DNA of 64,000 bases from Methanosarcinales archaeon (GCA_021108405.1 JAIOQW010000140.1:631-64630), one strand, 5' to 3'; counted from the first letter of the stretch, positions 12,471 to 60,885 are shown. A program made the numbers and translations. The notes: generated from the letters alone by a model not told the origin.

Positions 12471-12537
12471 GAACAAAATCCTCCCTCTGGTCGGATTTTC
12501 TTGAGTATATATCCCTATAGATTATATACTATAAAAA
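12471..12537 (+). repeat. Hairpin mosaic element, modules A-H
   Basis: GAACAAAATCCTCCCTCTGGTCGGATTTTCTTGA followed by AGTATATA-11 nt-TATATACT and an A-run. It starts 14 nt after the nfeD stop. Confidence 0.85.
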
Positions 12538-12594
12538 GACTTAATAAAGTTGAGTATTATTAATCATTATTAATTATTATAGGTAGGCGAGTAT

Positions 12595-13770
12595 ATGGAC
12601 ATGAATATAGGTTTTATAATAGCTTTAATTATTACAGTGGCACTGATATTGATCTTTATATCAGGTGTTACTATTATCCAGCCCTATGAACAGGGCCTCT
12701 GGATAGTGCTTGGGAAATATAAAAGACGGTTGAATCCTGGTTTTAACTGGATATATCCACTTATCAGTGAAGTTATCCGCCTGGATCTGAGGACACAGGT
12801 ACTGGATGTTCCAAGGCAGGAGGTCATTACTAAAGATAACAGTCCCACCAATGTGGATGCTATTGTTTATATCAGAGTGATCGATCCTGAGAAATCCTAT
12901 TTTGAAGTTGTCAACTATCATCTTGCCACAGTCAGCCTTGCCCAGACCACACTTAGATCCGTAGTAGGTGATATGGAATTAGATGAGATCCTGTACAACA
13001 GGGATCTTATTAATAATAGACTCAGGGATATCCTGGATGAAGCTACAGATGCCTGGGGTGTCAAAGTAGAAGCAGTAGAGATCAGGGAAGTGGACCCTGT
13101 TGAGGCTGTTAAGGCTGCTATGGAAGAGCAGACCTCGGCTGAGAGAAAGAGAAGAGCTGCTATTTTATTAGCAGACGGACAGAAAAAAGCAGCCATCCTG
13201 GAAGCTGAAGGATCAAAACAGGCACTGATCTTAAATGCCGAAGGTGTCAGGCAATCCAAGATCCTGGAATCCGAAGGTGAGCGTGTGTCCAAGATACTTG
13301 TGGCCCAGGGAGAGTCGCAGGGTCTAAGAGTACTCAGTCTTGGTGCTGTGCCATTAGATAAGAAAGCCATTTCCGTACTCAGTATGAACATGATGAAAAA
13401 GATGGCTGACGGCCAGGCTACCAAGATCATCTTCCCGATGGAGATATCCCGGATGCTTGATCAGGTAGGAGAATACCTCGGTGCATCTACTGTGGTCCCT
13501 GAAGTAGGTGAAGTAGTAGATATAGAGAAGATAGTAGGTAAGGCTGATGAGGTGCTGGGTAAGATACCTAATCCTGACGAACTTCGAAAGGAAGTAGAAA
13601 AGATCGAGAAAGCCATGATAAAAGAAACTGAGGAATCGCTGGCGGTCGATCCGATAAAAGAGAAAGGCGCCAAAGGCAGATCAGATATACATGTCTTTAA
13701 GGAAGATGAGGATAGTATTTCTTCCGAACCTCCTATGGAGAATAATTCCAGTGAAAAGGAAGAAAGTTAA
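12595..13770 (+). CDS. SPFH/Band 7 (stomatin/prohibitin-like) protein with acidic C-terminal tail
   Basis: N-terminal TM, SPFH core (TKDNSPTNVDAIVYIRV, LRSVVGDMELDEIL), and an Ala/Glu-rich coiled region. Confidence 0.9.
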   Translation: MDMNIGFIIALIITVALILIFISGVTIIQPYEQGLWIVLGKYKRRLNPGFNWIYPLISEVIRLDLRTQVLDVPRQEVITKDNSPTNVDAIVYIRVIDPEKSYFEVVNYHLATVSLAQTTLRSVVGDMELDEILYNRDLINNRLRDILDEATDAWGVKVEAVEIREVDPVEAVKAAMEEQTSAERKRRAAILLADGQKKAAILEAEGSKQALILNAEGVRQSKILESEGERVSKILVAQGESQGLRVLSLGAVPLDKKAISVLSMNMMKKMADGQATKIIFPMEISRMLDQVGEYLGASTVVPEVGEVVDIEKIVGKADEVLGKIPNPDELRKEVEKIEKAMIKETEESLAVDPIKEKGAKGRSDIHVFKEDEDSISSEPPMENNSSEKEES

Positions 13771-13782
13771 CCACAATCCTAA

Positions 13783-14214
13783 ATGACGGTTGTTATCCGT
13801 AGTGCTGGTAAGGCAGATATACCACAAATAAAAAAAGTCCTTACTCAGTATCTACTGGAGACCGAACTGGTAAAAAGTAATATTGATCTGTTCATTGTAG
13901 CAGAGTATAATAAAAAGATCATTGGGTGTGCATGCCTGGACAATAGTTCAGGTGTGCTGGAACTCAGATCAATTGCCGTACTGCCTGGGTGGAAGAATAA
14001 GGGTGTCGGACGAAGGCTGGTTAACACATTAAGATCAAGAGCCAGTGGCATGAGTGATAGATTATATGTACGAACAACAGCCAGTAGTTTTTTTAGCAAG
14101 ATGGGATTTATGGAACTAAATAATTCACAAAAACCCAAAATCTGGCAGGACTGTGCCTGCTGTGATAAGTTGAAAATATGTAAGCAAGTTTTGATGGTAC
14201 TTGAATTAAGGTGA
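13783..14214 (+). CDS. GNAT family N-acetyltransferase
   Basis: Acetyl-CoA motif A: LRSIAVLPGWKNKGVGRRLV. Confidence 0.75.
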   Translation: MTVVIRSAGKADIPQIKKVLTQYLLETELVKSNIDLFIVAEYNKKIIGCACLDNSSGVLELRSIAVLPGWKNKGVGRRLVNTLRSRASGMSDRLYVRTTASSFFSKMGFMELNNSQKPKIWQDCACCDKLKICKQVLMVLELR

Positions 14215-14215
14215 G

Positions 14216-14837: not shown

Positions 14838-14859
14838 GAACAAAATCCTCCTTCTGGTC
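14838..14859 (+). repeat. Left half of module A only
   Basis: GAACAAAATCCTCCTTCTGGTC matches the first 22 nt of module A. The sequence then diverges, with no GGATTTTCTTGA arm. Confidence 0.6.
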
Positions 14860-15702
14860 CTGGCCCTGTCGATGTATTCAGGATAGCTTCTGCCTGGCCC
14901 GGGACTTTTTTAATGAAATGCAGGGTAATTAATAGAATATTGACCTGTTGCCGTCTCTACAAGAATGGAAAAACCTGTACAAAGCAGCGCTTGGGTTCAA
15001 GGAACTGGCTTCTTGGAACTGGATGCACGACAGCGACATTTTCGGGGTTAAAGACCCGGTAAGCGGTGAAATAGGATACTACTGCATCATGGGCGCTGTA
15101 GGTGAGCACTATGCTCTTGGGCTATATTTAGGCTCACAGGGATTGTGTGGGCTATCGAGTATACTCCCCAGCCCGGATGTTCCCGATCGCTTCCATAGTC
15201 CATGCATCAAGTTCAATATTATGGCTAGCAGCCAATTTTCGCAGTTCTCCTGCTGCTATTTCCAGATATTCCTCATCGGTCTGGTCCCCCATCTCTTCAC
15301 GCTTATTCAATGACTCTTGTATAGAAAGGTGGGTAAACACTTTTTGTACCTCATAAGAATGCATCCTATGAGTCGATGTCAGGACAATACATTGGCACAG
15401 GGCCTCAATGCGGGGCGACTATATAGTAGGTGCGCTGTAAGCCTTACCCACATGGCTCACCATTTCCTCGGAAGACACCTGTGCCAGATGATACTTGGAT
15501 TCCAAACCACTTTAATCTGACGTTTTACTTCACTGATATGACTATAATCTGCCAGTCATATCCAGTCCGGGATTCTCCTCCATCCTTCAATGGCCATGGA
15601 TTTGGGATTTACCCGCTTAACCTTATACCACGATTCCCGGTATTTGATCAGATATCCTGGCTTAACATCCTTAGGAGCGATCTTCAAACCGAGCTAAACA
15701 AA
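14860..15702. other. Degraded region with broken ORFs on both strands
   Basis: The plus-strand ORF 14948-15145 looks protein-like (SLQEWKNLYKAALGFKELASWNWMHDSDIFGVKDPVSGEIGYYCIMGAVGEHYALGLYLG) and then degenerates. A protein-like minus-strand ORF runs 15152-15364, and further minus-frame fragments follow to 15700. Confidence 0.3.
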
Positions 15703-15772
15703 GAACAAAATCCTCCCTTCGGTCGGATTTTCTTGAGTATATTATCTTACAGATTATATACTATAAAAAAAA
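15703..15772 (+). repeat. Hairpin mosaic element, modules A-H
   Basis: GAACAAAATCCTCCCTTCGGTCGGATTTTCTTGA + AGTATAT...ATATACT + A9. Confidence 0.85.
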
Positions 15773-21419: not shown

Positions 21420-22101
21420 ATTGAGTGAGACTATTTTTCAGCTTATTAAACTACCTGATTTAGTGACCCTGATAAATGCACTGCTTGGTTTTTCTGCAAT
21501 TCTAATGGTGATCCAGTCTCCATCCAATGTCAATCATGCCTCTATCCTTATCTTATTAGCTGTAATGAGTGATGGATTAGACGGTCTGGTCGCCAGATCA
21601 ATGGAATCAGGTAAGCTTGGGGAATCTCTTGATTCACTGGCTGATACAATATCTTTTGGAGTAGCTCCATGTGCCATGGTATATGCCATACTGGCACCTC
21701 AGTTCCATTATTATGCCTGTTTTGTTGGAGGGGTATTTTTAGCATGTAGTATACTCAGACTGGCAAGGTTCAGTGCAATACCTGTAAAAAAAGGATTTAT
21801 GGGTATTCCGATAACAACTTCCGGTCTGATCGTAGTTCTATATATACTGGCCTTCTATGATGAAAGTTCTCCACTTTATTCCATTGTTCTATTAGGTATC
21901 ATGTTTGTCCTGGCTATGTTAATGATCAGCAATATACCATATCCGAAGATACAGGATACCAGGATTCTTGGTTTGGTTGCTTTTTTAATAATTGTGATTA
22001 TGCTGTTATTCTATCTGGACTATCAAGCCGGACTTGATATAATTGCTAAAGCTTGCTTTGTATTGATGGGATTATATGTCTTTAGTCCATTTTTCAAGTA
22101 A
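21406..22101 (+). CDS. pssA: CDP-alcohol phosphatidyltransferase (archaetidylserine synthase)
   Basis: DGLDGLVARSMESGKLGESLDSLADTISFGVAP matches D-G-x2-A-R-x8-G-x3-D-x3-D. Confidence 0.85.
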   Translation: MQVYELSETIFQLIKLPDLVTLINALLGFSAILMVIQSPSNVNHASILILLAVMSDGLDGLVARSMESGKLGESLDSLADTISFGVAPCAMVYAILAPQFHYYACFVGGVFLACSILRLARFSAIPVKKGFMGIPITTSGLIVVLYILAFYDESSPLYSIVLLGIMFVLAMLMISNIPYPKIQDTRILGLVAFLIIVIMLLFYLDYQAGLDIIAKACFVLMGLYVFSPFFK

Positions 22102-22124
22102 CTGCTCACTTCGTTCGCAGTTAC
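22098..22124 (-). repeat. Hairpin GTAACTGC-[TCACTTCGTTC]-GCAGTTAC carrying the conserved 11-nt loop in reverse orientation
   Basis: 8-bp perfect stem. The loop is the reverse complement of GAACGAAGTGA. It overlaps the pssA stop codon and sits at the truncation point of the next gene. Confidence 0.8.
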
Positions 22125-22708
22125 TTAAGGCTATCAAGCAGAAATACGATTTACCGGATAACTTTATTCTTTCTGTTGCAAAACCATTCCAGGGTGATAG
22201 ATTGTTACCAAGGAAAAACATTGATAATATCGTGAGATCATTCCTTGCATTTGAGGATAATTCAAAAACATTAAAACTCGTATTAGCAGATAATCGCTGT
22301 TATGAGTATATCACAGAGGTATTTGGGAAAGAATTGGCAAATGATCCTAGATTTGTCTATCCTGGTTGGATTTCTCATGAAGATATGCCCTATATATATA
22401 GTCTTGCAAAATTACTTATGATGCCATCATACTCTGAAAGTTTCGGTCTTCCATTGGTGGAAGCAATGGCATGTGGCTGTCCCGTAATCACTTCAACAAC
22501 AAGTTGTTGTCCTGAAATTGTAGGGGATGCAGCTATTGTTGTTGACCCTACTGATGTTAAGGGGCTGACCTTTGCTATAAGTAGTATATTAACTGATCAA
22601 GAACTTTCCAAAAGATTCACTGAAAAAGGAATAAAAAAAGCAAGTGAATATAGCTGGTCTAATAGTGCTAAAAAAGTAATAAGAATTTTCGGCACTGTCC
22701 TGGAATAG
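22124..22708 (+). pseudogene. 5'-truncated GT4-family glycosyltransferase (C-terminal Rossmann domain only)
   Basis: The E-x7-E region ESFGLPLVEAMACGCPVI and the typical GT4 C-terminus are present. The N-terminal ~170-aa domain is absent, and the reading frame runs straight out of pssA and the hairpin. Confidence 0.6.
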
Positions 22709-22972: not shown

Positions 22973-23209
22973 TTTTTATAGTATATCAAATATAACTTGA
23001 TATATCGAAAATGCTTCGCATTTTCTAATCCTCCATTCCTCCAGAATGTCGGTCAATAAAATCCGAGCGGTAGCGAGGATTTTGTTCCAGTATATATTTC
23101 ATAAAAATATATCTCAAGTAAATGCGAACGAAGTGAGCATTTTTTTGTAGTATATCAAGTATAACTTGATGTACTCAAGAAAATCCGAGCGGTAGCGAGG
23201 ATTTTGTTC
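22973..23209 (-). repeat. Two adjacent mosaic elements in reverse orientation (F-Eshort-B-A, then extra hairpins-Elong-F-A)
   Basis: TAGTATATCAAATATAACTTGATATA; GAAAATGC-TTC-GCATTTTC; CTCCATTCCTCCAGAATGTCGG; AAAATCCGAGCGGTAGCGAGGATTTTGTTC occurs twice (ending at 23087 and 23209). Confidence 0.85.
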
Positions 23210-30615: not shown

Positions 30616-30704
30616 TGCTATATCCTCCTTACTTATAATTTCAATAAAACTCTTAATTCTCTTATAGTTTTATAATTGAATCTATTTAAAACTTATGAAT
30701 AAAA

Positions 30705-30762
30705 AACACAATCCTCCATTCAGTCGGATTTTACTGAGTATATCAAGTTATACCTGATATAT
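30705..30762 (+). repeat. Hairpin mosaic element, diverged A plus F
   Basis: AACACAATCCTCCATTCAGTCGGATTTTACTGA + GTATATCAAGTTATACCTGATATA. It lies between the ubiA-type gene and the histone gene. Confidence 0.7.
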
Positions 30763-30787
30763 TAAAATAAAGGTATAATCATAGCAA

Positions 30788-33400: not shown

Positions 33401-33435
33401 GAACAAAATCCTCCCTCCGGTCGGATTTTCTTGAC
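33401..33435 (+). repeat. Module A alone, directly upstream of the IS91-like transposase gene
   Basis: GAACAAAATCCTCCCTCCGGTCGGATTTTCTTGA. Next comes a CATTTTCT/AGAAAATG hairpin (about 33455-33488) whose arms match the module E stem. Confidence 0.85.
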
Positions 33436-33495
33436 GTATAGGAATTTATAAACACATTTTCTTATCCTGCTACTGAAATAGAAAATGTTGAAAGA

Positions 33496-34365: not shown

Positions 34366-34532
34366 AGCCGCTGAAAGTGGAATTGGTAGAGATCAAACTT
34401 TAAGTGATATTGAATATTTGAAATTTAGGGGATATGTCTATGAGCCTAAAACAGGAGAAATTAGATATGCATTATAAGCGGTAGCCGAAGCGTATATGCT
34501 GTGTTAGACGATAATGCGAACGAATGGGCATA

Positions 34533-41212: not shown

Positions 41213-41281
41213 GAAATATCTTAAGTGAACTACTCCCAGCTATTGCAAAAATTTTAAATCGTATATTTCGAATTGTTCACC

Positions 41282-42235
41282 TTATTCATTTGTCCAGTCG
41301 TTCATATCAAGTTTTATAGCGATTTTAACCTTTTCAGAAATACTTATGTTCTCAATATCTATCTTATCTAAGGCTTGCAGTCTTTTCTTTAACCCACATT
41401 GATTAGCATTTTGGATACTTAACCCTGGTCGGGCATTCAGTTCAAGCACAAGCGGTCCGACTTTGTTATCGATAGCTATGTCAACACCAAGATATCCGAG
41501 TCCTACTGCACAAAATGATTTAGTAGCCATTGTAAGAATATCATCCCAGAAAGGTATCTCAACCCCGACCAGAGAAGATCCCGTATCCGGGTGTGAATAT
41601 ACAGATCGGTCCTTACAGATTGCATGGACTGTCTTTCCTTCTGATATTTTAATTCCTGCCCCCAATGCTCCTTTATGGAGATTTGCTTTACCAGAAGACT
41701 CTTTTGTAGGTAATCGAACCATTGCCATTACTGGTATACCTTTATATACTATGATCCTGACATCAGGTACTCCCTCAAAAGAGACTTTCTCAAGAGATGA
41801 ATGAGATATAATTAAAGACTCTAAAAAGACCGTACTTGGGCTACCATCAATAGAATATACACCTTCAAGTATTTCCAGACAATGTTTTTGGATCTCTTTG
41901 AGAGTTATTAACTTACCGTTTGCCATTACCCAGTTATCTTCTACTCTACCCTTGATCACTACTATGCCTCTTCCACCTGCACCTACTGAAGGTTTTATTA
42001 CAAATTTGTCTGTTGTTAGTGATTTATCAAGATTTTTAAGTTCATGCACTTCCTTAAAAACACTATACACTTCAGAAAACGGAATGTTAAAATCCTTAAG
42101 AAGGTCTTTTGTCACGAGTTTATCATCTACTAAATTGAGCAATTTTCTCGGGTTTTTCGGGAAGATGAAACTAATGTTACGTTCATTTATTCCGATTATT
42201 TCCCTTTTATTACTGAATAATCCATATATGATCAT
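41282..42235 (-). CDS. Alpha-L-glutamate ligase-related ATP-grasp protein (RimK-related)
   Basis: GINERNISFIFPKNPRKLLNLVDDKLVTKDLL, FEGVPDVRIIVYKGIPVMAMVRLPTKESSGKANLHKGALGAGI, LGYLGVDIAID...PLVLELNARPGLSIQ. Confidence 0.8.
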   Translation of the reverse strand: MIIYGLFSNKREIIGINERNISFIFPKNPRKLLNLVDDKLVTKDLLKDFNIPFSEVYSVFKEVHELKNLDKSLTTDKFVIKPSVGAGGRGIVVIKGRVEDNWVMANGKLITLKEIQKHCLEILEGVYSIDGSPSTVFLESLIISHSSLEKVSFEGVPDVRIIVYKGIPVMAMVRLPTKESSGKANLHKGALGAGIKISEGKTVHAICKDRSVYSHPDTGSSLVGVEIPFWDDILTMATKSFCAVGLGYLGVDIAIDNKVGPLVLELNARPGLSIQNANQCGLKKRLQALDKIDIENISISEKVKIAIKLDMNDWTNE

Positions 42236-42239
42236 ACAT

Positions 42240-42866
42240 TTAACCTTTCATAACCCTGGAAAACCTGAAATACTCCACCATACGCAACCCTTTCCATCTT
42301 CCAAGAAGTATATTAAACCCTACAACCAGAAAGAGGATTTCCGGATGGGTCATAACAACTGCCTGAAGAGTGGGTTGGGAAATCACCAAAAAACAAATAA
42401 GTGAAACAAATAGTGTACCTAAACTGATTTTAAGAGCATCCCGAATTCCCTTCTCTACTGTAGTTTTCATAAAGTTCTCTATAATGATGGACATTATTAT
42501 TAATGGAAAAACAGTAATTGTCGCAAGTGATTGGTTGCCTGTTTTAATTCCGATTGTTATTAAAGCTGCTATTATTATACAGCACAATGTCAGCAATACA
42601 GCCAGTCTGGGTACCAACATGAGATTCAGGCGTTCAATATATTTTCGTACGAAAACACCTGTTATCAATAAAACGCCGAACAGGATCAAGCCTATAATCA
42701 AGCCGGAACTTAGAAAAGCTATTGACATTATAGCAGGTCCGAAAACACCATATGTTTGTAATCCGATAACATTTCTAAAAATAGCCACAATTGTAGCTGC
42801 AAACGGTAAAATAAGAATAAGTTTTAGAGTTTCAAGTGGAATATTTGATTCTGATACTTTTATCAT
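42240..42866 (-). CDS. Multi-TM protein, likely the 7TM module that partners RimK-related ATP-grasp ligases
   Basis: 208 aa with 6-7 hydrophobic helices. It lies 4 nt upstream of the ATP-grasp gene on the same strand. The family assignment comes from context and topology only. Confidence 0.5.
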   Translation of the reverse strand: MIKVSESNIPLETLKLILILPFAATIVAIFRNVIGLQTYGVFGPAIMSIAFLSSGLIIGLILFGVLLITGVFVRKYIERLNLMLVPRLAVLLTLCCIIIAALITIGIKTGNQSLATITVFPLIIMSIIIENFMKTTVEKGIRDALKISLGTLFVSLICFLVISQPTLQAVVMTHPEILFLVVGFNILLGRWKGLRMVEYFRFSRVMKG

Positions 42867-42919
42867 TGTATCGACTTTTACTTTTTCATAGTTATGAATA
42901 GTCTCCAGGTCTTCATCAT

Positions 42920-43705
42920 CTACTGTTGAAAATTTAATATTTTTTTATCCAGTATTTCTGTGACAGGGTTCTTCTGTATGGAAGATGTAAGTATTGCATC
43001 CCATACAAGATCAGAATCTTTTAAATCTGTTATAATAAGGTATTCCGGAGAAGCTGCCTTTTGTAAGATTAAGGCATGCTGCTTTAACACTTTTTCTCCT
43101 ATATCACTTGAAATGATTATTTTTTTATCATTCAATGAACCATATGAAGTTACATAGTCTATTATAACATTCAATCCTGTTATATCTTTTGAGAATATTA
43201 CAATATATTCAATATCTATAGTATCATCCGGAAACGTACCCGGGAAATATTTTGAGTCATAATCAATTCTTTTTTCAAGTACTGGTATCCCAACTGCTGT
43301 GGCATAATTTCCCATTAGTCTTACAAGATTATATTTAACCGAGTTATCATAAATTATCAGCATAGAGCTCATATTAGATTCTTCTGTGCTCTCTGGTTTA
43401 TTATCATCTATATCGCTATCTGATCCGGTGTCATCATCTTCATCACTGTCTACATCATCTGCTTCGCTATCTGATTCACTGTCATCATCTACACCGCTAT
43501 CTGTATCATCATCGTCATCCACATCGCTGTCTGACTCACTGTTATCATCTACATCACTGTCTGGTTCATCGTTGTCATCTCCATCACTATCTGACTCTGC
43601 TTGAGATATTTCTAGGTTTGTTAACGCTAGCAACCCACCAGTCAGAAGAATTGTGATAATCACTAATATGACCCTTATTCTCATATGTTCTAATTCCTTT
43701 TCCAT
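42920..43705 (-). CDS. Signal-anchored protein with ~70-aa Asp/Ser-rich repeat region and C-terminal globular domain
   Basis: N-terminal TM VILVIITILLTGGLLAL, six DSDxDDxxxx-type decamers, then about 150 aa of ordinary sequence. It is the first gene of the three-gene minus-strand cluster. Confidence 0.6.
   Translation of the reverse strand: MEKELEHMRIRVILVIITILLTGGLLALTNLEISQAESDSDGDDNDEPDSDVDDNSESDSDVDDDDDTDSGVDDDSESDSEADDVDSDEDDDTGSDSDIDDNKPESTEESNMSSMLIIYDNSVKYNLVRLMGNYATAVGIPVLEKRIDYDSKYFPGTFPDDTIDIEYIVIFSKDITGLNVIIDYVTSYGSLNDKKIIISSDIGEKVLKQHALILQKAASPEYLIITDLKDSDLVWDAILTSSIQKNPVTEILDKKILNFQQ
43390..43600 (-). repeat. In-frame ~30-bp periodic repeat encoding DSD(V/G/I)DD decamers
   Basis: The protein reads DSDGDDNDEP DSDVDDNSES DSDVDDDDDT DSGVDDDSES DSEADDV... 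DSDIDDNKPE. The shadow ORF on the opposite strand is correspondingly repetitive. Confidence 0.8.
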
Positions 43706-43711
43706 TATTTT

Positions 43712-43876
43712 TAGTATATCAAGTATAACTTGATATATCGAAAATGCTCACTCTGTTCACATTTTCTAATCTTCAGCTCTTTTATGAGCCTCGCTCGAAG
43801 ATTCTATGAATCTTCTAATCCTCCATTCCTCTGGAATGTCGGTCAAGAAAATCCTCCAGACGGGTAGATTTTGTTC
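43712..43876 (-). repeat. Full-length mosaic element in reverse orientation (F-E-D-C-B-A on the plus strand)
   Basis: TAGTATATCAAGTATAACTTGATATA; GAAAATGC-TCACTCTGTTC-ACATTTTC; D-like; GAAGATTC-TAT-GAATCTTC; CTCCATTCCTCTGGAATGTCGG; diverged A ending GATTTTGTTC. Confidence 0.85.
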
Positions 43877-44022
43877 TTATCTAACTTTCTTCACTTTGTT
43901 GTGACTTATTTATCATTATTTATACATTTCGGCTTACACAGTATCTTCAAATAACTTTTTGATATTTCTTCAATCAGCATCAATTTGCGTTTCCTACACG
44001 CTCCTTAAGTCGTTGCAGTCAT

Positions 44023-44041
44023 TCAACTCCGCAGGAGTTGA
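44023..44041. repeat. Isolated triloop hairpin TCAACTCC-GCA-GGAGTTGA
   Basis: 8-bp perfect stem and 3-nt loop, the same design as modules B, C and E. Confidence 0.6.
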
Positions 44042-44106
44042 TTCGATATTAGAATATATACAGCTGATAATTGCTTTTTTATACATATAATGAGTATTTA
44101 TAAGAA

Positions 44107-44619
44107 ATGATCAATCCCAGATCTCGAAGATATAATATTACAGCATATACAATGATTCTTCTAGCAGTGGTACTGTGGGATACATCTCTTGTAGTGGCTC
44201 CTTATTTTGCATATGTTGGCGGAATATACCAGAGCATATCAGATATTATTTATTTTAATTTCCATTTTTTATGTCATCAAATGCCTGAGCGCTCTTTGTT
44301 TATTTTAGGGAACAAAATGCCTGTATGTCTACGTTGTGCTGGTATTTATTTTGGATTTCTGATAGGAACTATCGCATACCCCTTTATCAGGGGCCTTGAA
44401 ACACGAGATATTCCCCATAAGTGGATATTAATTATAGCATTGTTGCCAGTTGGTATTGACGGCCTTACACAGCTTGTGGGACTCAGACAGAGTACTAACG
44501 ACCTGAGAGTAGTTACAGGTACGATCTTGGGTGTGCTATCTGCCTTTTTTATTGTGCCTGCATTTCTTCAGGTGTATGATGAAATGTGTAATTTTTTAAG
44601 AAAAAAATTAAATGACTGA
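44107..44619 (+). CDS. DUF2085-family membrane protein
   Basis: CHQMPERSLFILGNKMPVCLRCAGIYFG signature. 4-5 TM. Confidence 0.7.
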   Translation: MINPRSRRYNITAYTMILLAVVLWDTSLVVAPYFAYVGGIYQSISDIIYFNFHFLCHQMPERSLFILGNKMPVCLRCAGIYFGFLIGTIAYPFIRGLETRDIPHKWILIIALLPVGIDGLTQLVGLRQSTNDLRVVTGTILGVLSAFFIVPAFLQVYDEMCNFLRKKLND

Positions 44620-44700
44620 TCCACACTATTTATATATAAAAAGAGGAATTGATACTAATTTTTCCAAAAAGTATATAAGGAGAGTAACAGTTTATTATCA

Positions 44701-44762
44701 TAGTATATATTCCATAAGATTATATACTTAAGAAAATTCGAGCGTTAGCTAGGATTTTGTTC
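44701..44762 (-). repeat. Mosaic element H-A in reverse orientation
   Basis: TAGTATATATTCCATAAGATTATATACT + TAAGAAAATTCGAGCGTTAGCTAGGATTTTGTTC. Confidence 0.8.
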
Positions 44763-44795
44763 TTCAGATTATCTAATATCTTTAGGAGTATTTTT

Positions 44796-45236
44796 ATGGT
44801 TGATTTTAATAAATTGCAAAAACCTGTTTTAATTTCAGGAATTCCGGCTGGATTAATTTCAGTGATCCCATTTATACATTGTCTATGCTGCGTGTGGCTG
44901 ATACTGTTTGGTTTTCTATCAGCATATTTATTTAAAAAAGATACAGGAACTCTGGAAATCGAAGACGGTGTAATATCCGGAGCTCTAACTGGTTTAGTAG
45001 CATTTGTTATTATGATGATTTTATCTATAATCTTTATATTTTTTAAAGTTGGAATATCCCCTCTAATGGGAGAAGATATGGCAATGCAAGGTATTATGTC
45101 AGGTTTTTCTTTATTATTTATATTATTCACAGGGTTAATACAAATCATCGTATTTCCGATTTTCGGAGCAATTGGCGGAATAATTGGAGCTGTATTGTTG
45201 AAAGATAAAGAACTGAGTGAACAAAATCCTCGCTAA
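44796..45236 (+). CDS. Small polytopic membrane protein of unknown function
   Basis: 4 TM segments. The ATG at 44796 is preferred because the track start at 44757 lies inside the repeat. The last five codons and the stop (EQNPR*) are encoded by module A. Confidence 0.5.
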   Translation: MVDFNKLQKPVLISGIPAGLISVIPFIHCLCCVWLILFGFLSAYLFKKDTGTLEIEDGVISGALTGLVAFVIMMILSIIFIFFKVGISPLMGEDMAMQGIMSGFSLLFILFTGLIQIIVFPIFGAIGGIIGAVLLKDKELSEQNPR

Positions 45237-45502
45237 CGCTCGGATTTTCTTGACTGAAGCTCCGAAGGAGCTGAAGATTAGAAGATTCGTAGAATCTTCA
45301 CCTGAGGCTCTTAAAAGAGCCTAAGATTAGAAAATGTGAACGGAGTGAGCATTTTCGATATATCGAGTTATACCTGATAGAGGCTGTCCAACAATCCAAA
45401 ATCGGAAGAAAAAGAAAGGCAAATAGGGCTGTTAATCCAAAAACAAGTGAAATTTTTGATACCAAAAGCAATTGTGGGACAGCCTCGATATACTATAAAA
45501 AA
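45219..45502 (+). repeat. Full-length mosaic element A-B'-C-D-E-F, with F interrupted by a 107-bp insertion
   Basis: GAACAAAATCCTCGCTAACGCTCGGATTTTCTTGA; GAAGCTCC-GAA-GGAGCT; GAAGATTC-GTA-GAATCTTC; GGCTCTT-AA-AAGAGCC; GAAAATGT-GAACGGAGTGA-GCATTTTC; split F. Confidence 0.9.
45380..45486. mobile_element. Nested 107-bp TIR element inserted in module F, flanked by a GATA direct duplication
   Basis: 10-bp perfect TIRs GAGGCTGTCC / GGACAGCCTC. GATA occurs at 45376-45379 and again at 45487-45490, while intact F copies have a single GATA (ACTTGATATACT). Confidence 0.6.
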
Positions 45503-45611
45503 TTCCCATAAAGTATAAATGTTCGGAAATAATGATCAATGCATTATCTTTATAAAGGGTTACCAGTAAAAAGGTAACCACATAATATTATAATTATTCG
45601 GTGCATCAATC

Positions 45612-46676
45612 ATGTCAAATATTTCCATTAAAACGATAAATAAAAGTCATATAGATGAAGTTGATTTTGATAATCTAGGTTTTGGCGAGGTCTTTTCTGA
45701 TCATATGTTCAGTATGGATTATGAGAACGGGGAATGGATAAACCCGAGGATCGAACCATATGGAAATATTGAATTCGAACCTGCTATGTGCACACTTCAC
45801 TATGCTCAATCAGTCTTTGAAGGTCTGAAAGCCTTCCATGTTAATGATGGGAGTATTAATCTTTTCAGGCCCGAGATGAACCTTGAAAGGATGAACAGAT
45901 CCAACGACAGGATGTGCATTCCGCGTATAGATATTGATATGTTCTTTGATGCTATGACCACTCTCATCAAACTGGAGCGCAACTGGATACCTGATAAAAA
46001 AGGATATTCATTATATATACGGCCCTTTGTTTTCGGGACTGAGAATTTCCTTGGTGTGCATCCTTCAAACACATATCGTTTTATGATCATACTCTCACCG
46101 GTCGGTGCATACTACAAAGAAGGTTTCAATCCTGTTAGTCTGTTAGTACCTGAAGAATATGTCAGGGCTGTTAAAGGCGGAGTTGGTGAGGCAAAAACTT
46201 CAGGTAACTATGCTGCCAGTCTGCTGCCTGCCGAGATAGCACAGAAAAGGGGGTATACCCAGGTATTATGGCTTGATGGTGTAGAGCATAAATATATTGA
46301 TGAAGTAGGTACCATGAATATCTTCTTTGTTATTGATGATGAACTGGTAACACCACCACTGGAAGGTTCAATTTTAGGCGGTATAACCAGGGATTCTACC
46401 ATTCACCTGGCAAGAGACTGGGGTATGAAAGTATATGAGCGGCGCATTTCTATTGATGAGATCATTGAGAGATCAAAAGAGGATAGACTCAAAGGGGCCT
46501 TTGGTACTGGTACTGCAGCTGTCATATCCCCGGTAGGTGAGATCCGGTATAAGGATATTACGCTAAATATAAATGACGGGGAGATAGGTCCTATCGCCAG
46601 AAGATTGTATGATGAGATCACTGGTATACAGTACGGAGAAAAACCTGATAGATACGGGTGGATATACAAGATATAA
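45612..46676 (+). CDS. ilvE: Branched-chain amino acid aminotransferase
   Basis: 354 aa, class IV aminotransferase (YAQSVFEGLKAF, VGEAKTSGNYAASL, GTMNIFFV, GITRDS). Confidence 0.9.
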   Translation: MSNISIKTINKSHIDEVDFDNLGFGEVFSDHMFSMDYENGEWINPRIEPYGNIEFEPAMCTLHYAQSVFEGLKAFHVNDGSINLFRPEMNLERMNRSNDRMCIPRIDIDMFFDAMTTLIKLERNWIPDKKGYSLYIRPFVFGTENFLGVHPSNTYRFMIILSPVGAYYKEGFNPVSLLVPEEYVRAVKGGVGEAKTSGNYAASLLPAEIAQKRGYTQVLWLDGVEHKYIDEVGTMNIFFVIDDELVTPPLEGSILGGITRDSTIHLARDWGMKVYERRISIDEIIERSKEDRLKGAFGTGTAAVISPVGEIRYKDITLNINDGEIGPIARRLYDEITGIQYGEKPDRYGWIYKI

Positions 46677-46835
46677 AAATAAAATCCTCGCTAGCGCTCG
46701 GATTTTATTGACCGACATTCCAGAGAAATGGAGGATTAGAAGATTCGTAGAATCTTCGCCAGAGGCTCTTAAAAGAGCCGAAGAGTAGAAAATGTGAACG
46801 GAGTGAGCATTTTCGATATAGTTGTACTTAATACT
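46676..46835 (+). repeat. Full-length mosaic element A-B-C-D-E-(degenerate F)
   Basis: It starts at the ilvE stop codon and ends at the HNH gene ATG. Modules are as in 45219, except that B (CATTCC-AGA-GAAATG) replaces B'. Confidence 0.9.
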
Positions 46836-47264
46836 ATGAAAAAGACTAATATTAAAAGGACCATACAGTACCGCCGTAAGATCCAGCTTCTTACACAGTT
46901 GTTCAATAAAAGAAAAACTGAGCTATCAGCGGGATATCAGGGGTATCACGAACTTAAAGGGTTTGTGGATGAGTGTGAGCACTGGGGCATAATGGACCGC
47001 GGCCAGGAAAAGGCACTGGATGAGTGGATAGATTTTCTTAACCGCTGGCCTTTTGCAGGAGGAACAACGAAGAGTGCTTTAACACCATACCAGCGAAATA
47101 AGGCGATGGGGAAGCAACAGTTTATATGTACTATGTGCGGCAGGCCTGCAGAAGAGGTGCATCATATAATCCCAAGATCAAAGGGCGGTCGGAATACTTC
47201 TGGTAATCTTACTATATTGTGCAGGGAGTGTCATGAAAAAATTCATAAAAAAAAGAAAAAGTAG
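46836..47264 (+). CDS. Stand-alone HNH endonuclease
   Basis: CTMCGRPAEEVHHIIPRSKGGRNTSGNLTILCRECHEKIH. I did not recognise the N-terminal ~90 aa. The track start at 46794 lies inside the repeat, so the ATG at 46836 is preferred. Confidence 0.75.
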   Translation: MKKTNIKRTIQYRRKIQLLTQLFNKRKTELSAGYQGYHELKGFVDECEHWGIMDRGQEKALDEWIDFLNRWPFAGGTTKSALTPYQRNKAMGKQQFICTMCGRPAEEVHHIIPRSKGGRNTSGNLTILCRECHEKIHKKKKK

Positions 47265-50367: not shown

Positions 50368-50429
50368 GAACCAAATCCTCCTTCCGGTCGGATTTTCTTA
50401 AGTATATCAAGTTATACTTAATATACTAT
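50368..50429 (+). repeat. Hairpin mosaic element A-F
   Basis: GAACCAAATCCTCCTTCCGGTCGGATTTTCTTAA + GTATATCAAGTTATACTTAATATACT. Confidence 0.8.
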
Positions 50430-51482: not shown

Positions 51483-51545
51483 GTAGTATATCAAGTATAA
51501 CTTGATATACTCAAGAAAATCCGAGCGTTAGCGAGGATTTTGTTC
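51483..51545 (-). repeat. Mosaic element F-A in reverse orientation
   Basis: GTAGTATATCAAGTATAACTTGATATACT + CAAGAAAATCCGAGCGTTAGCGAGGATTTTGTTC. It ends 11 nt before the speB start. Confidence 0.85.
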
Positions 51546-51556: not shown

Positions 51557-52441
51557 ATGTCTGACAATTTCTTTTTTGCAGATGCTGATTCCAGTTATGA
51601 GGATGCTATTTTCATAATATTCGGTGCACCTTTTGACTATACTTCTACATATAGGAAGGGAAGTCGGTTAGCTCCTGATATTATCAGGGAAGTATCATAT
51701 AGTTTTGAGACCTACAATCCTTTTTTTAATGTGGACCTGTGTAATGTTCCAATGCATGATGCAGGAAATATTGAGATAAGTAATAACTGTACTATTGAGC
51801 AGGCTATAACAGTCGTAGGTAATATGGTCCGTAAGGTTATTGCTCAGGGTAAGATACCGATAATGCTGGGTGGTGAACATTCCCTCACACTTCCATGTAT
51901 AAGAGAAACAAAACTCAGATATCATGACCTTGGTGCAGTAGTACTGGATGCACATCTTGATCTGCTAAATGATTATTCAGGTGAAAGAAACAGTCATGCA
52001 TGTATAAGCCGCCGTATTATTGAGGATGTTACCGATGAGTATGTCTCAATCGGGATACGAAGCGGGAGCCGGGATGAATATTCAACAGCAAAGACTAAGA
52101 ATATAATTTATTATACAGCCGATCAAATATATGATATGGGCTGTGATAATGTCCATACTGAGCTGAGCAGATACTTAAATACCCGGCATTTGTATCTATC
52201 CCTTGATATGGATGTCCTGGATCCTTCTTTTGCTCCTGCACTGGGAACACCTGAACCTTTCGGTCTTACCGACCGTCAGGTACTTTCGTTTATTCGAAAG
52301 CTTGCTCCACGAACAGTAGGTTTTGATGTGGTTGAGATCGCCCCTCAATATGATAGCGGTAATACGGCACTGCTGGGTGCAAAATTTATCAGGGAATTTA
52401 TTGCAGCGGTTTGGGCATATAAAGAACAAAATCCTCGCTAA
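51557..52441 (+). CDS. speB: Agmatinase (arginase family)
   Basis: GGEHSLT, DAHLDL, SLDMDVLDP. The last codons and stop (EQNPR*) come from module A. Confidence 0.9.
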   Translation: MSDNFFFADADSSYEDAIFIIFGAPFDYTSTYRKGSRLAPDIIREVSYSFETYNPFFNVDLCNVPMHDAGNIEISNNCTIEQAITVVGNMVRKVIAQGKIPIMLGGEHSLTLPCIRETKLRYHDLGAVVLDAHLDLLNDYSGERNSHACISRRIIEDVTDEYVSIGIRSGSRDEYSTAKTKNIIYYTADQIYDMGCDNVHTELSRYLNTRHLYLSLDMDVLDPSFAPALGTPEPFGLTDRQVLSFIRKLAPRTVGFDVVEIAPQYDSGNTALLGAKFIREFIAAVWAYKEQNPR

Positions 52442-52455
52442 CACTCTGATTTGAA
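52424..52455 (+). repeat. Module A with degenerate right arm
   Basis: GAACAAAATCCTCGCTAACACTCTGATTTGAAC. The left arm and loop are intact and the right arm is mutated. Confidence 0.65.
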
Positions 52456-55892: not shown

Positions 55893-56087
55893 ATGGAAAC
55901 AAAAATCGAACATAATAAAGTGTGGCTCTACAAAGATGAATACGAAGATATGCTTGAATACATTGATCGATTGAAAGAAACAATAAACATTCTTTCTGAT
56001 ACTGATAATCTAATAGCAGTTAAAAAAGCTCTTACGAGAATCAAGTCTGGCAATTATCTCACGAAAGAAGATATGGTATTTGATTGA
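55893..56087 (+). CDS. Putative antitoxin of the RelE module
   Basis: 64 aa. 4-nt overlap (ATGA) with the downstream RelE-like gene. Confidence 0.55.
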   Translation: METKIEHNKVWLYKDEYEDMLEYIDRLKETINILSDTDNLIAVKKALTRIKSGNYLTKEDMVFD

Positions 56088-56341
56088 TGTATACTCTGCT
56101 ATTTGATAAAGAATTTAAAGTAGAACTTAAAAAACTCGGTAAACCTGAAAGGGATAGAATATTAAAGAAAGTCTTTCAACTTGAAAAATATCCTGAATTG
56201 GGAAAACATCTGATCGGTATCGATCTTTGGAGTCTTAGAATTGGAAAATATCGTGTATTGTACACAATCAAAGAAAACAAACTTCAAGTTCTTGTTCTGA
56301 CAGTTAGTCATCGAAGAAAAGCATATAAAAACATAGTTTGA
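56084..56341 (+). CDS. relE: RelE/ParE-family type II toxin
   Basis: 85 aa. LRIGKYRVLYTIKENKLQVLVLTVSHRRKAY. Confidence 0.85.
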   Translation: MMYTLLFDKEFKVELKKLGKPERDRILKKVFQLEKYPELGKHLIGIDLWSLRIGKYRVLYTIKENKLQVLVLTVSHRRKAYKNIV

Positions 56342-56361: not shown

Positions 56362-56425
56362 GAACAAAATCCTCCCTCTGGTCGGATTTTCTTGACTATA
56401 TATTCTTATAGATTATAATCTACAA
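56362..56425 (+). repeat. Hairpin mosaic element A-H
   Basis: GAACAAAATCCTCCCTCTGGTCGGATTTTCTTGA + CTATATATTCTTATAGATTATAAT. The H part overlaps the stop and last codons of the convergent larE-like gene. Confidence 0.8.
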
Positions 56426-57432: not shown

Positions 57433-57438
57433 AGCTTA

Positions 57439-58200: not shown

Positions 58201-58617
58201 CTAAAAATCAGCAGCAACTTCTTGAATATTAATTTCTTCCTCGTTATGTATCAATAAATGCTTACGTGCCTCAAATTCCGGTAATATTTCAAAATTCTCT
58301 ACCAGTTCATCATAAATATCATGTTTTGAACTAACAATAACCACATGAGCAGGTGGGTGTATCTTTGTTAGTTTCCCTATGGCTACACTGGGAACCGTAT
58401 TTAAAGAAACAACTGCCGCAGAGCTACATTTGTTTTTTAATGGTCGGTTGATCACCTTGCCAAGTATCTCGTCCGCATAATCAGGCGACATAGATTTTGG
58501 CGGACCGGCAAATACCATTCTACCATATCTTCTTAGATCCAATAAAGTAGTATGCACTTTAAGACTGGTATCTGCACGTATTACTGCAAATGATTTCATT
58601 TTTTTATTCCACACCAC
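58201..58617 (-). CDS. Conserved hypothetical protein (138 aa)
   Basis: ORF with ordinary composition. Family not recognised. Confidence 0.4.
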   Translation of the reverse strand: MVWNKKMKSFAVIRADTSLKVHTTLLDLRRYGRMVFAGPPKSMSPDYADEILGKVINRPLKNKCSSAAVVSLNTVPSVAIGKLTKIHPPAHVVIVSSKHDIYDELVENFEILPEFEARKHLLIHNEEEINIQEVAADF

Positions 58618-58683
58618 AGATAACGTAACGTCTATCGACTATAAATAAATACCTATAATGTTCTTTACAGGTTATGTAATTTC

Positions 58684-59661
58684 TTAATTTTTTTGGACTT
58701 TTTCAAAAATAAATGTAATCAAATCCACGAAATCATCCATTGCCTCAATTTCATTCTTTTCTACCAATACAGTATTATCCACACACTCGGATTTACAGGG
58801 CCCATTGACTATGAACATTGAATGCGTTTTCGCCACATCAGAAATACTGCTCATCAACTTTGCCCTTTTTACCATAGCACCTGAATAATTGCTAAAACCA
58901 GTAAGAATAGTGGGTATAGGATCATTATTTTTACTATTATTTTGAGTGTGTTCAAATGAAACAGCACTGAACGGAGCCTGTGAAACAGGGATAACATCAA
59001 GTCCCAGACCTGATAAAATAGACCTTATACTGGTCCCGGGTTCTGTTTCACATGAAGATATCTCAGTTTTCATTTTACGTTTTTCAATATTGATAAAATC
59101 AATTGCCTGGGCAAATGCGTGATTAAATAATTCTTCAAGATGCATTACTATATCAACTGACATATCCATACCCTCTTCCTCATATTTGGATACAGTTCGT
59201 CTGGAAACTCCAAGTTCAGTAGCAAGAGCACCTATTGATAAATCTGAACTCAATCGCATATCACGTAACAGACTACCATCTATACTGACATATAGCCCGC
59301 CTGGGGCAGCATATATTAGCGGAGGCAGGTTCTCCATAAAATAATCATATAATGTTTCTATATTAATGGAAGGAACACCGTATCTATAATAAACTACAGT
59401 TGATTCCAGAGGATGGTCCCTGGTCTTTTCACCTACCACCAACGGAACACCGGCAAGATATTTAGATAAACATATCATTTCCCTGGCAGTTTCTTCCTTG
59501 AGTCCGTCAATATTAGAAAGTACCTTGATCAGAAGAAATATGTCCTCGAGTCTGGCAGCTATATCAAAACTCCTGGGTCTGATATTACACCGCGCAGATA
59601 TATTGAACCCGCTGTGTTCAAGATGTTCTACAACCTGGTTTATCAATATCTCTTTATTCAT
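58684..59661 (-). CDS. Archaeal putative HTH-type (XRE-like) transcriptional regulator, ~320-aa family
   Basis: Central HTH LSIGALATELGVSRRTVSKYEEEG. Length and layout match the methanogen family of putative HTH-type regulators. Confidence 0.7.
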   Translation of the reverse strand: MNKEILINQVVEHLEHSGFNISARCNIRPRSFDIAARLEDIFLLIKVLSNIDGLKEETAREMICLSKYLAGVPLVVGEKTRDHPLESTVVYYRYGVPSINIETLYDYFMENLPPLIYAAPGGLYVSIDGSLLRDMRLSSDLSIGALATELGVSRRTVSKYEEEGMDMSVDIVMHLEELFNHAFAQAIDFINIEKRKMKTEISSCETEPGTSIRSILSGLGLDVIPVSQAPFSAVSFEHTQNNSKNNDPIPTILTGFSNYSGAMVKRAKLMSSISDVAKTHSMFIVNGPCKSECVDNTVLVEKNEIEAMDDFVDLITFIFEKVQKN

Positions 59662-59842
59662 TATATATAATCAGGTATTTAATTGTATATAAATAGGATG
59701 TTAATTGGTGATCGTTGTAATTCAAATTATCCAAGGTTATACAAGTATAAGTACTGCAAAATATTATTAAGCAAGGTTTATTGTATTACACTAATAATAT
59801 ACACTAAGACAACAGAAAAGTTGAGATTAAAGGTGGACCAAA

Positions 59843-60739
59843 ATGGAACTTGAAGGATTACGACATGGAACTGAATTATTAAAACGCGGATTTGCCAGTA
59901 TGCAAAAAGGTGGTGTTGTTATGGATGTCACAACTTCGGATGAGGCACATATTGCAGAAGATGCCGGTGCTGTAGCGGTCATGGCCCTGCATATGGTTCC
60001 TGCTGATATCAGAAAGATCGGTGGTGTGGCACGTATGGCTGACCCACAAATTATTTCGCAGATCATTGATGCTGTTACCATACCGGTTATGGCTAAGGCA
60101 CGTATCGGCCATTTTGTAGAAGCTGATATACTACAATCATTGGGTGTAGACCTGGTAGATGAATCTGAAGTGTTGACCCCTGCAGATGAGAAATATCATA
60201 TTGATAAAAGGAACTTTACCATTCCTTTCATATGCGGAGCCAGGGATCTGGGTGAAGCTCTACGTAGAATTCATGAAGGAGCGGCCATGATACGTACCAA
60301 AGGGGAAGCAGGTACAGGTGATATACGCGAAGCTGTCAGACATATCCGTGTGATCAATGAACAGATAGGTAAGCTTAAAGGGATGAATATACAAGAGATG
60401 GAAAGAGTGGCAAGAGAGATTGAAGCACCTATAGAATTAGTTATAGAGACAGGAGAACGCCAGCGTCTTCCCGTAGTAAACTTTGCTGCCGGCGGGGTTG
60501 CTACACCCGCAGATGCTGCCCTGATGATGAGACTGGGTGCAGATGGTGTTTTTGTAGGTAGCGGTATATTCAAAGCAGAGAATCCGTCCACTATGGCAAG
60601 TGCTATTGTGGATGCAGTCAACAATTTCGATGATGCTAAGGTGCTGGGTGAGATATCCAAGGGTCTGGGAGAACAGATGAAAGGTATAAGCATTGATACC
60701 ATCCCGAAAGAGGAGATATTACAGACCCGAGGATGGTAA
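59843..60739 (+). CDS. pdxS: Pyridoxal 5'-phosphate synthase, lyase subunit
   Basis: [48 protein letters not shown]. Confidence 0.95.
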
Positions 60740-60885
60740 ATAAAATCCTCGCTAGCGCTCGGATTTTCTTGACTGAAGCTTCGAAGAAGCTGAAGATTAG
60801 AAGATTCGTAGAATCTTCGTCTGACATTCCGGAGGAATGGAGGATTAGATAATGTGAACGGGGTGAGCATTTTCGATGTATCAAG
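60740..60885 (+). repeat. Full-length mosaic element A-B'-C-B-E-(degenerate F)
   Basis: It starts 1 nt after the pdxS stop. B' here is GAAGCTTC-GAA-GAAGCT, a compensated variant. The E loop is GAACGGGGTGA. Confidence 0.9.

Follow-up and report, generated by a model that had tools for sequence, protein, structure and literature searches.

A family of modular mobile elements built of joined short hairpins is found in a 64,000-nucleotide (nt) stretch of DNA from a Methanosarcinales archaeon (GCA_021108405.1, JAIOQW010000140.1:631-64630), hereafter the window. The family is real, active, and undescribed, and belongs with the transposase-less, palindrome-associated mobile elements. Each complete element opens with an imperfect hairpin, module A, and closes with a perfect palindrome, module F or its variant H. 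Insertion is precise, occurs beside T-runs without duplicating the target, and is most like that of a miniature IS91-type rolling-circle transposon. The window itself is a metagenome contig from an ANME-2 archaeon, an uncultured methane oxidiser. The elements may be moved as single-stranded DNA by an HUH endonuclease acting in trans, most likely the Y2 enzyme of an IS91-family insertion sequence (IS), a reading that is held here with about even confidence.

Reality of the repeats

The observation of hairpin repeats is confirmed, and every module occurs far beyond chance. With expected counts taken from shuffled sequence and the left arm of A matched at no more than one mismatch, the window contains 18 left arms of module A (1.78 expected), 13 right arms (0.66), nine copies of F (0.03), five of C (0.01), and five each of B and E (0 expected for both). 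The window has 95 perfect hairpins with stems of 7 bp or longer, compared with 43-53 in block shuffles, and the modules account for this excess. Direct-repeat families connect the loci with one another. A blastn-short search with ten module consensi finds approximately 17 element loci, with a combined length of 1,741 nt (2.7% of the window). The elements are 60-170 bases long and fold on either strand as chains of independent hairpins, with z-scores of -5 to -8.

The preliminary description of this DNA proposed a dense modular family of joined hairpins with linkers, present in both orientations, whose modules recur in a conserved order. This picture holds, given the enrichment over shuffles, the approximately 17 loci, and 60 further chains with the same module order in other genomes. 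It also did not recognise the repeats as a described archaeal family, and none is found. Rfam gives no match at gathering score over the whole window, and only noise in E-value mode over the richest 3.4 kb (43600-47000). Full-text literature searches returned no description of these repeats.

Module order and hairpin architecture

The grammar was drawn from the window and at least 42 loci from a scan of species-representative genomes. An element begins with A (A1 or A2) and ends with F or H. Between them there may be one of B, B', or D, then any number of repeats of C followed by B, B', or D, and then E. The most frequent forms are A-F, A-H, and A-X-E-F. Long forms carry two to eight additional small hairpins between the A and F/H ends, and one copy in the ANME-2 cluster archaeon HR1 reads A2-(B'-C)x3-B'-E-F. 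The linkers finish in ..GATTAGA or ..C[T/A]GA (..CYGA) and alternate strictly.

Module A is an imperfect hairpin preceded by GAAC. An invariant 2x2 internal loop (GA/GA or TC/TC, depending on the strand) separates its outer stem of 7 bp from an inner stem of 2 bp, and the hairpin closes in a loop of 3-4 nt. The F/H end is a perfect palindrome that finishes ...TATACTA. A (AAAATCC..GGATTTT with an internal loop) and F (AGTATATCAAGT..ACTTGATATACT) have nothing in common. All of the modules first listed are present, but two of them are not separate modules: H is a variant of F with the inner stem replaced, and E is an inverted A-type hairpin. Read in opposite orientations, E and A both have the form N7-GA-NN-(3-4 nt)-NN-GA-N7.

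This GA..GA architecture is represented by 73 instances in 23 variants. Neither GA dinucleotide ever changes, and compensatory substitutions occur in both stems, of which the inner is CC/GG, GC/GC, or AC/GT. Outer stems include AAAATCC/GGATTTT, AAAATGT/GCATTTT, TAAACGC/GTGTTTA, TAACTGC/GCAGTTA, CAAATCC/GGATTTG, and AAGCCCT/AGGGTTT. The structure, with its fixed 2x2 loop, is thus under selection.

Mobility and insertion anatomy

The elements are mobile. Between the aIF5A and agmatinase genes, the window carries a short A2-F element on the minus strand (51484-51545), and the spacer is 95 nt long. The same spacer is 34 nt long and empty in four related contigs (contigs are identified here by L numbers): L138, L139, L064 (agmatinase 96% identical), and L048 (87%). 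On L138 and L139, aIF5A is 100% identical to that of the window, with one single-nucleotide polymorphism in the flank. The ENA accession of the L139 sample (ERZ26872907) is closely adjacent to that of the window (ERZ26872896). All four empty sites read AATTATTTTTTG joined to TCAGGATAAAT, or in a longer reading AATTATTTTTTG joined to TCAGGATAAATATG. The insert is TAGTATATCAAGTATAACTTGATATACTCAAGAAAATCCGAGCGTTAGCGAGGATTTTGTTC (TAGTATATC...GGATTTTGTTC), 62 nt with a 1-nt (T) ambiguity at the boundary. Filled and empty sites reveal neither a target duplication nor terminal inverted repeats (TIRs), and the element ends differ (GAACAAAATCC... and ...TTGATATACTA). Presence/absence polymorphism in relatives, which the preliminary description had proposed as a check, is thus seen at this site.

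Past the F/H end (...TATACT), 52 copies continue with A, then T in 32 copies (A in ten, C and G in five each), then A in 35 (G in 11, T in six), and then AAAAA. The A-run is present in 37 of the 52, compared with 9% of random AT-rich positions (p = 3e-27). Since it already exists in the empty sites, the run belongs to the target and not to the element. On the complementary (R) strand, the element lies after TTTTT-[T/C]-[A]^ (^ marks the junction), begins TAGTATA..., and ends in GTTC^ past the A hairpin, i.e., it extends from T-run^TAGTATATCAAGT... to ...GGATTTTGTTC^. Target strings at the elements follow TTTTT[T/C][A]^ (TTTA, TTCA, TTTG, and GTTC in two copies). On the A side, GAAC and the imperfect hairpin open 64 of the 74 full-length A copies listed, the inserted DNA ends ...GGATTTTGTTC, and the flank has a weak preference for A at position -1.

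Copies also insert into one another. In L028, an R-oriented F-hairpin copy follows the T-run of an A2 module, and in the window a copy follows a hairpin T-run at the 23147/23148 junction.

Module content varies at a single site. Just past the aminotransferase stop codon, four contigs encode an identical protein, but the module strings differ. The window has A2-B-C-D-E-F and L045 has A2-D-C-D-E-F. L044 and L046 have the same element with deletions of 42 nt and 8 nt, and in L047, A2 is fused to ..ATATACTA, followed by unrelated DNA. Homology to an approximately 91% identical relative stops at 37360 and restarts at 45489, both of which are element edges; a further break at 41226 has no element. 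Short-read contigs from the same strain terminate inside elements.

IS91-family insertion sequence and other HUH relics

Members of the IS91 family do not duplicate the target and require a short target beside oriIS alone. A GTTC or CTCG cleavage site adjoins the terIS, which is a subterminal, imperfect palindrome, and the left end of IS801 begins with GAAC. Mini-derivatives are mobilised in trans, and one-ended transposition is frequent (PMC13181058, PMC3189936). IS91 goes unmentioned in the main text of a 2026 survey of insertion sequences in archaea (PMC13343696).

The window contains a decayed IS91-family (Y2 HUH) insertion sequence at 33434-34465 (+), with the left end ACGTATAGGAATTTATAAAC. 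Its open reading frame (ORF), 33496-34365, is an IS91-family transposase (Pfam Y2_Tnp 3.5e-35; NCBIfam 238 bits, cut-off 125). This copy has a left-end and an internal deletion, and covers amino acids 37-333 and 425-465 of a 468-amino-acid relative. Full-length relatives of the IS are approximately 1.65 kb and occur in Methanosarcinales and Methanoperedens, where they encode transposases of 466-480 amino acids with 70-81% identity. The 468-amino-acid protein has a C-terminal extension of approximately 100 residues, and the full-length transposase on L128 scores 288.6 bits against the same NCBIfam cut-off of 125.

The left end of the IS reads (A)ACG[T/C]ATAGGAAAGTATAAAC and is preceded by a T-run in seven of seven independent copies (p = 5e-8), e.g., TTTTTTTA^, CTTTTTGA^, TTTTTTCA^, and AATTTTCA^. 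In the window, it directly follows GGATTTTCTTG(A) of a module A1 (33401-33434, +), at the CTTG of that module, and the T-run is supplied by the module's own end, ...TTTTCTTG(A)^. The right end of the IS is a hairpin and TTTCTTGA^, followed by unrelated flanks, and full-length relatives terminate in GCCCCGAAGGGGCTTTCTTGA; module A is a hairpin and TTTTCTTGA. An IS91-family element of this lineage and the hairpin elements therefore have targets of one kind; the IS takes the 3' arm of module A as a target, and its far end is designed like module A.

A second HUH relic is ORF 36644-36964 (-), an IS200/IS605-type TnpA pseudogene (Pfam Y1_Tnp 8e-7; NCBIfam 28.5 bits, cut-off 55). To its left is a decayed junction resembling A joined to F (~36335-36365), and to its right is a composite hairpin array.

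Proposed mechanism

In the IS91-like reading, an HUH endonuclease would cut and join single-stranded element DNA in trans, and the Y2 rolling-circle transposase of the IS91 family is the most likely enzyme. On the putative active strand, the ori-like F end would be joined 3' of the T-run target (TTTTT-N-A^), and transfer would stop after GTTC^, directly 3' of the ter-like A hairpin. The direction from A to F would then map directly onto the conventional drawing of IS91, with ter on the left and ori on the right. On this strand the A hairpin would show tandem G.A mismatches, which are stable. The R strand, with the T-run target 5' and GTTC 3', would accordingly also be the strand with the GA/GA form of hairpin A. 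The 3' arm of module A (GGATTTTCTTGA) contains a T-run and CTTGA and would be a good target, so both elements and IS nest at its junction.

Recombination and deletion between the common linkers (..GATTAGA, ..CYGA) would shuffle the modules, as suggested by the alternating linkers and by the swaps and deletions at the aminotransferase site. E is an A-type hairpin turned around, with TTCG^A behind it, so the B..E block could derive from an ancient nested insertion of reverse polarity that later moved along with its host element. The idea that one-ended transfer stops at the GAAC of the E loop was rejected, since partial E-F copies begin upstream, at the ATTAGA linker.

A broader and more tentative claim is made with somewhat less than even confidence. 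The elements may be the first described archaeal non-autonomous rolling-circle mini-transposons with IS91/Helitron logic. They would be active in present-day ANME-2 and would target themselves through the T-run in the terminal hairpin, hence nesting into arrays. They would also rewrite gene 3' ends (stop codons and an EQNPR C-terminus), break synteny, and fragment assemblies.

Several points weigh against an IS91-family enzyme. Local and end-anchored alignments of the IS ends with F or A are not significant (p 0.11-0.17), and direct descent from the co-resident IS91-like element was rejected on the same kind of comparison with A-F and A-H; a GTATA/TTATACTT motif common to the IS and the elements is treated as chance. 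The ter hairpin of the IS is GC-rich (GCCCCGAAGGGGC) and does not have the GA/GA loop. Its transposase reads from the target-adjacent end to the hairpin end, opposite to IS91, and the window copy is truncated. The element target (TTTA, TTCA, TTTG) is akin but not identical to the canonical CTTG/GTTC.

The distribution of transposase genes points the same way. No Y1 or Y2 gene was found by tblastn, using truncated and full-length Y2 and one Y1 as queries, in approximately 240 kb of other element-bearing loci with more than 60 copies. Tight linkage to a transposase was rejected, as the tblastn matches are confined to the window and the IS contigs. Mosaic modules are absent around the full-length IS copies on their contigs. 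A simple nested-insertion origin of B..E leaves a 1-nt discrepancy at the E-F junction. The clean filled and empty comparison is limited to one site: exact look-ups at NfeD, PdxS, and ParE returned the same strain only, and a homologue search on an AAA ATPase returned only short contigs. Given the lack of significant similarity between IS and element ends, the GC-rich ter hairpin, the gene direction, and the lack of a nearby transposase, the cognate enzyme may be another HUH protein.

Alternative explanations

Mobilisation by a Y1 HUH enzyme is the alternative that survives best, though we consider it unlikely. The elements would then be IS200/IS605 derivatives like the palindrome-associated transposable elements (PATEs), or repeats like the bacterial repetitive extragenic palindromes (REPs) and their REPIN forms, with a REP-associated tyrosine transposase (RAYT), as the REP/BIME comparison in the preliminary description would imply. 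The description of PATEs as non-coding, without inverted termini or target duplication and with near-terminal palindromes (PMC3119063), fits the elements. IS200/IS605 is the commonest archaeal IS family (PMC13343696). It likewise inserts 3' of a short specific sequence, and the TnpA fragment at 36644-36964 adjoins a composite array with decayed copies on either side. However, PATE and IS605 ends carry similar palindromes (PMC3119063), and the terminal hairpins A and F are mutually unrelated and just 1-4 nt from the element ends. The GAAC/GTTC terminus is a signature of the IS91 family, and a conserved GTAG-type head is lacking. The sole Y1 gene is the pseudogene under its cut-off (28.5 of 55 bits), and none is near the more than 60 copies elsewhere.

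It is improbable that the elements are host cis-elements kept by selection, e.g., 3' untranslated region (3'-UTR) stabilisers, terminators or anti-terminators, or protein-binding sites, with only incidental mobility. Their hairpins are strongly structured, and their sequence is conserved between genomes whose genes are approximately 70% identical. The elements also adjoin T-runs, the archaeal termination signal. The preliminary description placed most copies 0-20 nt from a stop codon, which is an overstatement: six or seven of 17 A ends begin at or within 20 nt of the stop of a real gene, and two copies provide the stop itself. Against a host role, both orientations occur between co-directional genes. 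Orientation relative to flanking genes is mixed without strong bias under crude ORF calling, and a strict strand-specific RNA role was rejected for the same reason. The aIF5A-agmatinase copy is missing from near-identical strains, and module content at one site varies between strains that encode an identical protein. Elements are absent at the agmatinase locus in all 60-87% relatives, and no Rfam family matches.

A further possibility, which is quite improbable, is that the elements imitate the origin of a rolling-circle plasmid or virus and are moved by the Rep protein of that replicon, not by a transposase. The F arm reads ACTTGATAT, and phiX174 and pC194-type replicons are nicked at CTTG^ATA. 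The dissimilarity between the element ends and those of the sole IS91-like element found would also suit this explanation. Two pattern scans for A and F gave no match in IMG/VR viral contigs, no Rep gene is seen in any locus, and the element boundary is not at the CTTG inside F.

An assembly or chimera artefact is almost certainly not the cause, for although short-read contigs of one sample break within elements, real repeats themselves cause breaks at such positions, and the same elements lie in intact unique flanks of independent NCBI, ENA, JGI, and Logan assemblies.

Elements in the window

The short elements on the plus strand are A1-H at 12471-12531 (13 nt 3' of the NfeD stop and 63 nt 5' of the Band_7 start), 15703-15763, and 56362-56422 (20 nt 3' of a ParE-toxin gene), and A1-F at 50368-50428, in a divergent intergenic region, and 30704-30765, which is degenerate. 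On the minus strand, in addition to the polymorphic copy, are A2-H at 44701-44762 and A2-F at 23148-23209. The latter closes a composite array that begins with a long element, A2-B-E(short loop)-F read on the minus strand (22979-23087), preceded by CCTTTTTTA^. Between the two is a variant element (23088-23147, -), in which a palindrome resembling H is joined by CAAG to a hairpin of A type whose loop is GAACGAAGTGA. The next copy is inserted at the T-run of this element (GCATTTTTTTG^).

Further long elements are A1-B-C-D-E-F at 43712-43878 (-), A2-B'-C-D-E-F at 45219-45495 (+), A2-B-C-D-E-F at 46677-46836 (+), and A2-B'-C-B-E-F at 60738-60890 (+). F is degenerate in the last two, of which the first is directly 3' of the aminotransferase stop and the second is between PdxS and the RFC large subunit. 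The copy at 46677 varies in module content among relatives of about 91% identity. Partial copies include the left arm and loop of A1 at 14838-14859 (+) and an A2 at 52424-52455 (+), which encodes the last residues and stop of agmatinase (...KEQNPR*). Two unrelated proteins, an MJ1491-like membrane protein (45177-45236) and agmatinase (52382-52441), end in EQNPR*. These residues and the stop come from module A2, where the TAA sits in the loop.

The composite array initially placed at 37044-37340 is present and resolves, over 37012-37343, into two long elements that meet at one common F palindrome and a decayed copy. The decayed remnant (37012-37089, -) has an F/H-like module, a short-loop E, and a B'-like module. 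A1-B-E-F (37090-37205, +) follows, and an opposed element, A'-D-C-B-(short hairpin) (37210-37343, -), converges on the F palindrome at 37180-37205. The segment 37090-37343, A1-B-E-F-(short hairpin)-B-C-D-A', is a large quasi-palindrome. Strand switching at F and recombination are both possibilities for its origin.

All previously listed loci were found again, and solo A/E-type hairpins are additionally present at 7427, 22096, and 34505. The hairpin at 22096-22126 (-) has the conserved loop GAACGAAGTGA on a different stem of 10-12 bp, and those at 7427-7453 and 34505-34530 are similar. Together with 37311-37343 and L013 ~7034-7064, these hairpins have the 11-nt loop GAACGAAGTGA or near variants on quite different stems of 5-12 bp. 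Frequently located at the edges of genes, they appear to be scattered relatives of the A/E hairpin.

The F module of the 45219 element (45359-45495) is split by an unrelated miniature inverted-repeat transposable element (MITE) of 107 nt (45380-45486), which has TIRs and a target duplication. Members of this MITE family, also at L045 1477-1617, L047 73-213, and L129 1617-1757, have TIRs of ~10-17 nt (GAGRCTGTC...GACARYCTC) and target duplications of 4-5 bp (GATA, AGTAT, ATGTA). The TIRs alone are common to the 107-nt and 141-nt forms. Upstream of the aminotransferase, the MITE is present in L045 and L047 and absent from L044 and L046. The MITE was rejected as a sign of common lineage with the IS contigs, since only 17-nt TIRs are shared.

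Genomic context

The G+C content along the window is 34-45%. The window sequence is also within the 71-kb metagenome contig NODE_91 of ENA ERZ26872896 (exact aminotransferase match). The best named homologues are from 'Methanosarcinales archaeon' (92%) and from Candidatus Methanocomedens and 'ANME-2 cluster archaeon' (~80%). Neighbouring genes have ordinary housekeeping roles: cobalamin synthesis, NfeD/Band_7, aIF5A-agmatinase, PdxS, RFC, and AFOR. One gene has only faint cytochrome-family Pfam matches, and no tRNA or tmRNA was detected in the window. In-frame tandem repeats are found in ORF 6532-7167 (6564-6809, -; 51/21-nt period) and in ORF 42920-43705 (43402-43600, -; 30/60-nt period).

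A small HNH nuclease gene (46794-47264, +) is directly 3' of the long element at 46677 and is kept there in L044 and L045. Its HNH region is similar to that of IscB/Cas9 (NCBIfam guided_IscB 1.9e-11, far under the cut-off). Because the listed GTG start falls inside module E, the real start codon is probably further downstream. ParE-type toxin/antitoxin pairs (window 55893-56341; L044 9282-9729) adjoin elements and one synteny break. Where the window has the 4.2 kb of 41227-45488, the 91% relative has a ParE pair instead.

Distribution across genomes

The preliminary description expected further copies in related genomes, and these were found. Among the matches listed in the scan of species-representative genomes, most are on contigs of 'ANME-2 cluster archaeon HR1', several are in cold-seep Methanosarcinales metagenome-assembled genomes (MAGs), and some are on contigs binned as Anaerolineales or Desulfobacterales. 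Across HR1 and the cold-seep MAGs, the elements match at 80-100% identity. Element copies in the window and HR1 are 85-100% identical, but the genes are only ~70% identical; 15701-15769 is 100% identical to an HR1 copy (L027 1356-1424). For short elements, identity between the window and HR1 (0.80-0.93) is equal to that inside one genome.

The contigs in bacterial bins are L012, L020, L023, L029, L032, and L035 (Anaerolineales bin SFP3_US_05_5) and L018 (Desulfobacterales C00003106). Since L012 carries an archaeal ribD orthologue 68.5% identical to that of the window, element-bearing contigs in bacterial MAGs probably come from ANME-2 and were wrongly binned with partners or bystanders. The elements on L018 may have arrived by true inter-domain transfer.

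A metagenome scan with agmatinase found no module chain in the relative at 87% identity or in any at 60-65%, and in the 96% relative the A2 at the gene end is all that remains. The family is thus patchy across lineages, with a common consensus. At the agmatinase stop of the 87% relative (L048 1405-1465, a region that contains Ns), a long perfect inverted repeat, GAACAAAATCCTCGCTA..TAGCGAGGATTTTGTTC, is present instead of the imperfect A2 hairpin. This could mean that A originated as two inverted GTTC termini.

Significance

ANME-2 archaea are uncultured and slow-growing and are known almost wholly through metagenome bins. With approximately one copy every 4 kb, the repeats account for contig breaks and mis-binning. 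The presence or absence of copies can tell strains apart, and the elements mark synteny breakpoints and change gene ends. If the IS91-like reading is correct, rolling-circle transposition of the IS91/Helitron style and its non-autonomous parasites extend to archaea. The elements would also offer a compact substrate for hairpin reading by HUH enzymes: a 25-nt hairpin with an invariant GA/GA loop, then GTTC. If exapted, the hairpin strings in 3'-UTRs or between operon genes would be candidates for RNA-stability or termination control in organisms without genetics.

Comparison with known systems

The likeness to bacterial REP and BIME (bacterial interspersed mosaic element) repeats, noted in the preliminary description, stands as far as both are short, imperfect, high-copy intergenic palindromes in mosaics. 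REP, BIME, and REPIN repeats are often just past stop codons, form mosaic clusters with conserved linkers, and depend on HUH enzymes. The archaeal elements, in contrast, have no GTAG-type head, insert whole as a two-ended composite unit, and use a strict one-sided T-run target. No RAYT gene is present in the window or in the approximately 240 kb of element-bearing loci, and the anatomy is IS91-like. Classical MITEs have TIRs and a target duplication; neither is seen at the 62-nt insertion, and both are seen in the nested element at 45380-45486.

The PATEs of Haloquadratum walsbyi are likewise archaeal and transposase-free, without inverted repeats at the termini or target duplications and with near-terminal palindromes. 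They too outnumber autonomous elements and are struck by nested insertions. Their end palindromes resemble each other and IS605-type (Y1) ends (PMC3119063), whereas A and F are unrelated and have IS91 (Y2)-like termini. Mutually similar, IS605-like end palindromes are thus not seen here, in a window with no intact IS605-type element for comparison, and the many-hairpin strings are not a feature of PATEs.

Non-autonomous Helitrons of eukaryotes (PMC4683698) use the rolling-circle Y2 HUH logic proposed here, likewise lack target duplication and inverted termini, and carry a subterminal 3' hairpin. Their target is short and AT-rich, and they are far more numerous than the autonomous copies. Unlike the present elements, to which they have no sequence relation, Helitrons span kilobases, have the termini 5'-TC...CTRR-3', and require a Rep/helicase protein.

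The mini-derivatives of IS91 and IS801 (IS801 fragments of 229, 360, and 679 nt; IS91 mini-IS) also have unlike ends without target duplication or inverted termini. The left end is GAAC and a stem-loop, the right end is at a short specific target, and the derivatives are mobilised in trans, with variants produced by read-through and one-ended events (PMC3189936, PMC13181058). The elements described here differ in several respects. Their ends are not recognisably from the co-resident IS, and the target is a T-run followed by N-A rather than CTTG/GTTC. They are 60-170 nt long, occupy an archaeal host in hundreds of inferred copies, and carry internal hairpin arrays and an invariant GA/GA (TC/TC) loop in the ter hairpin.

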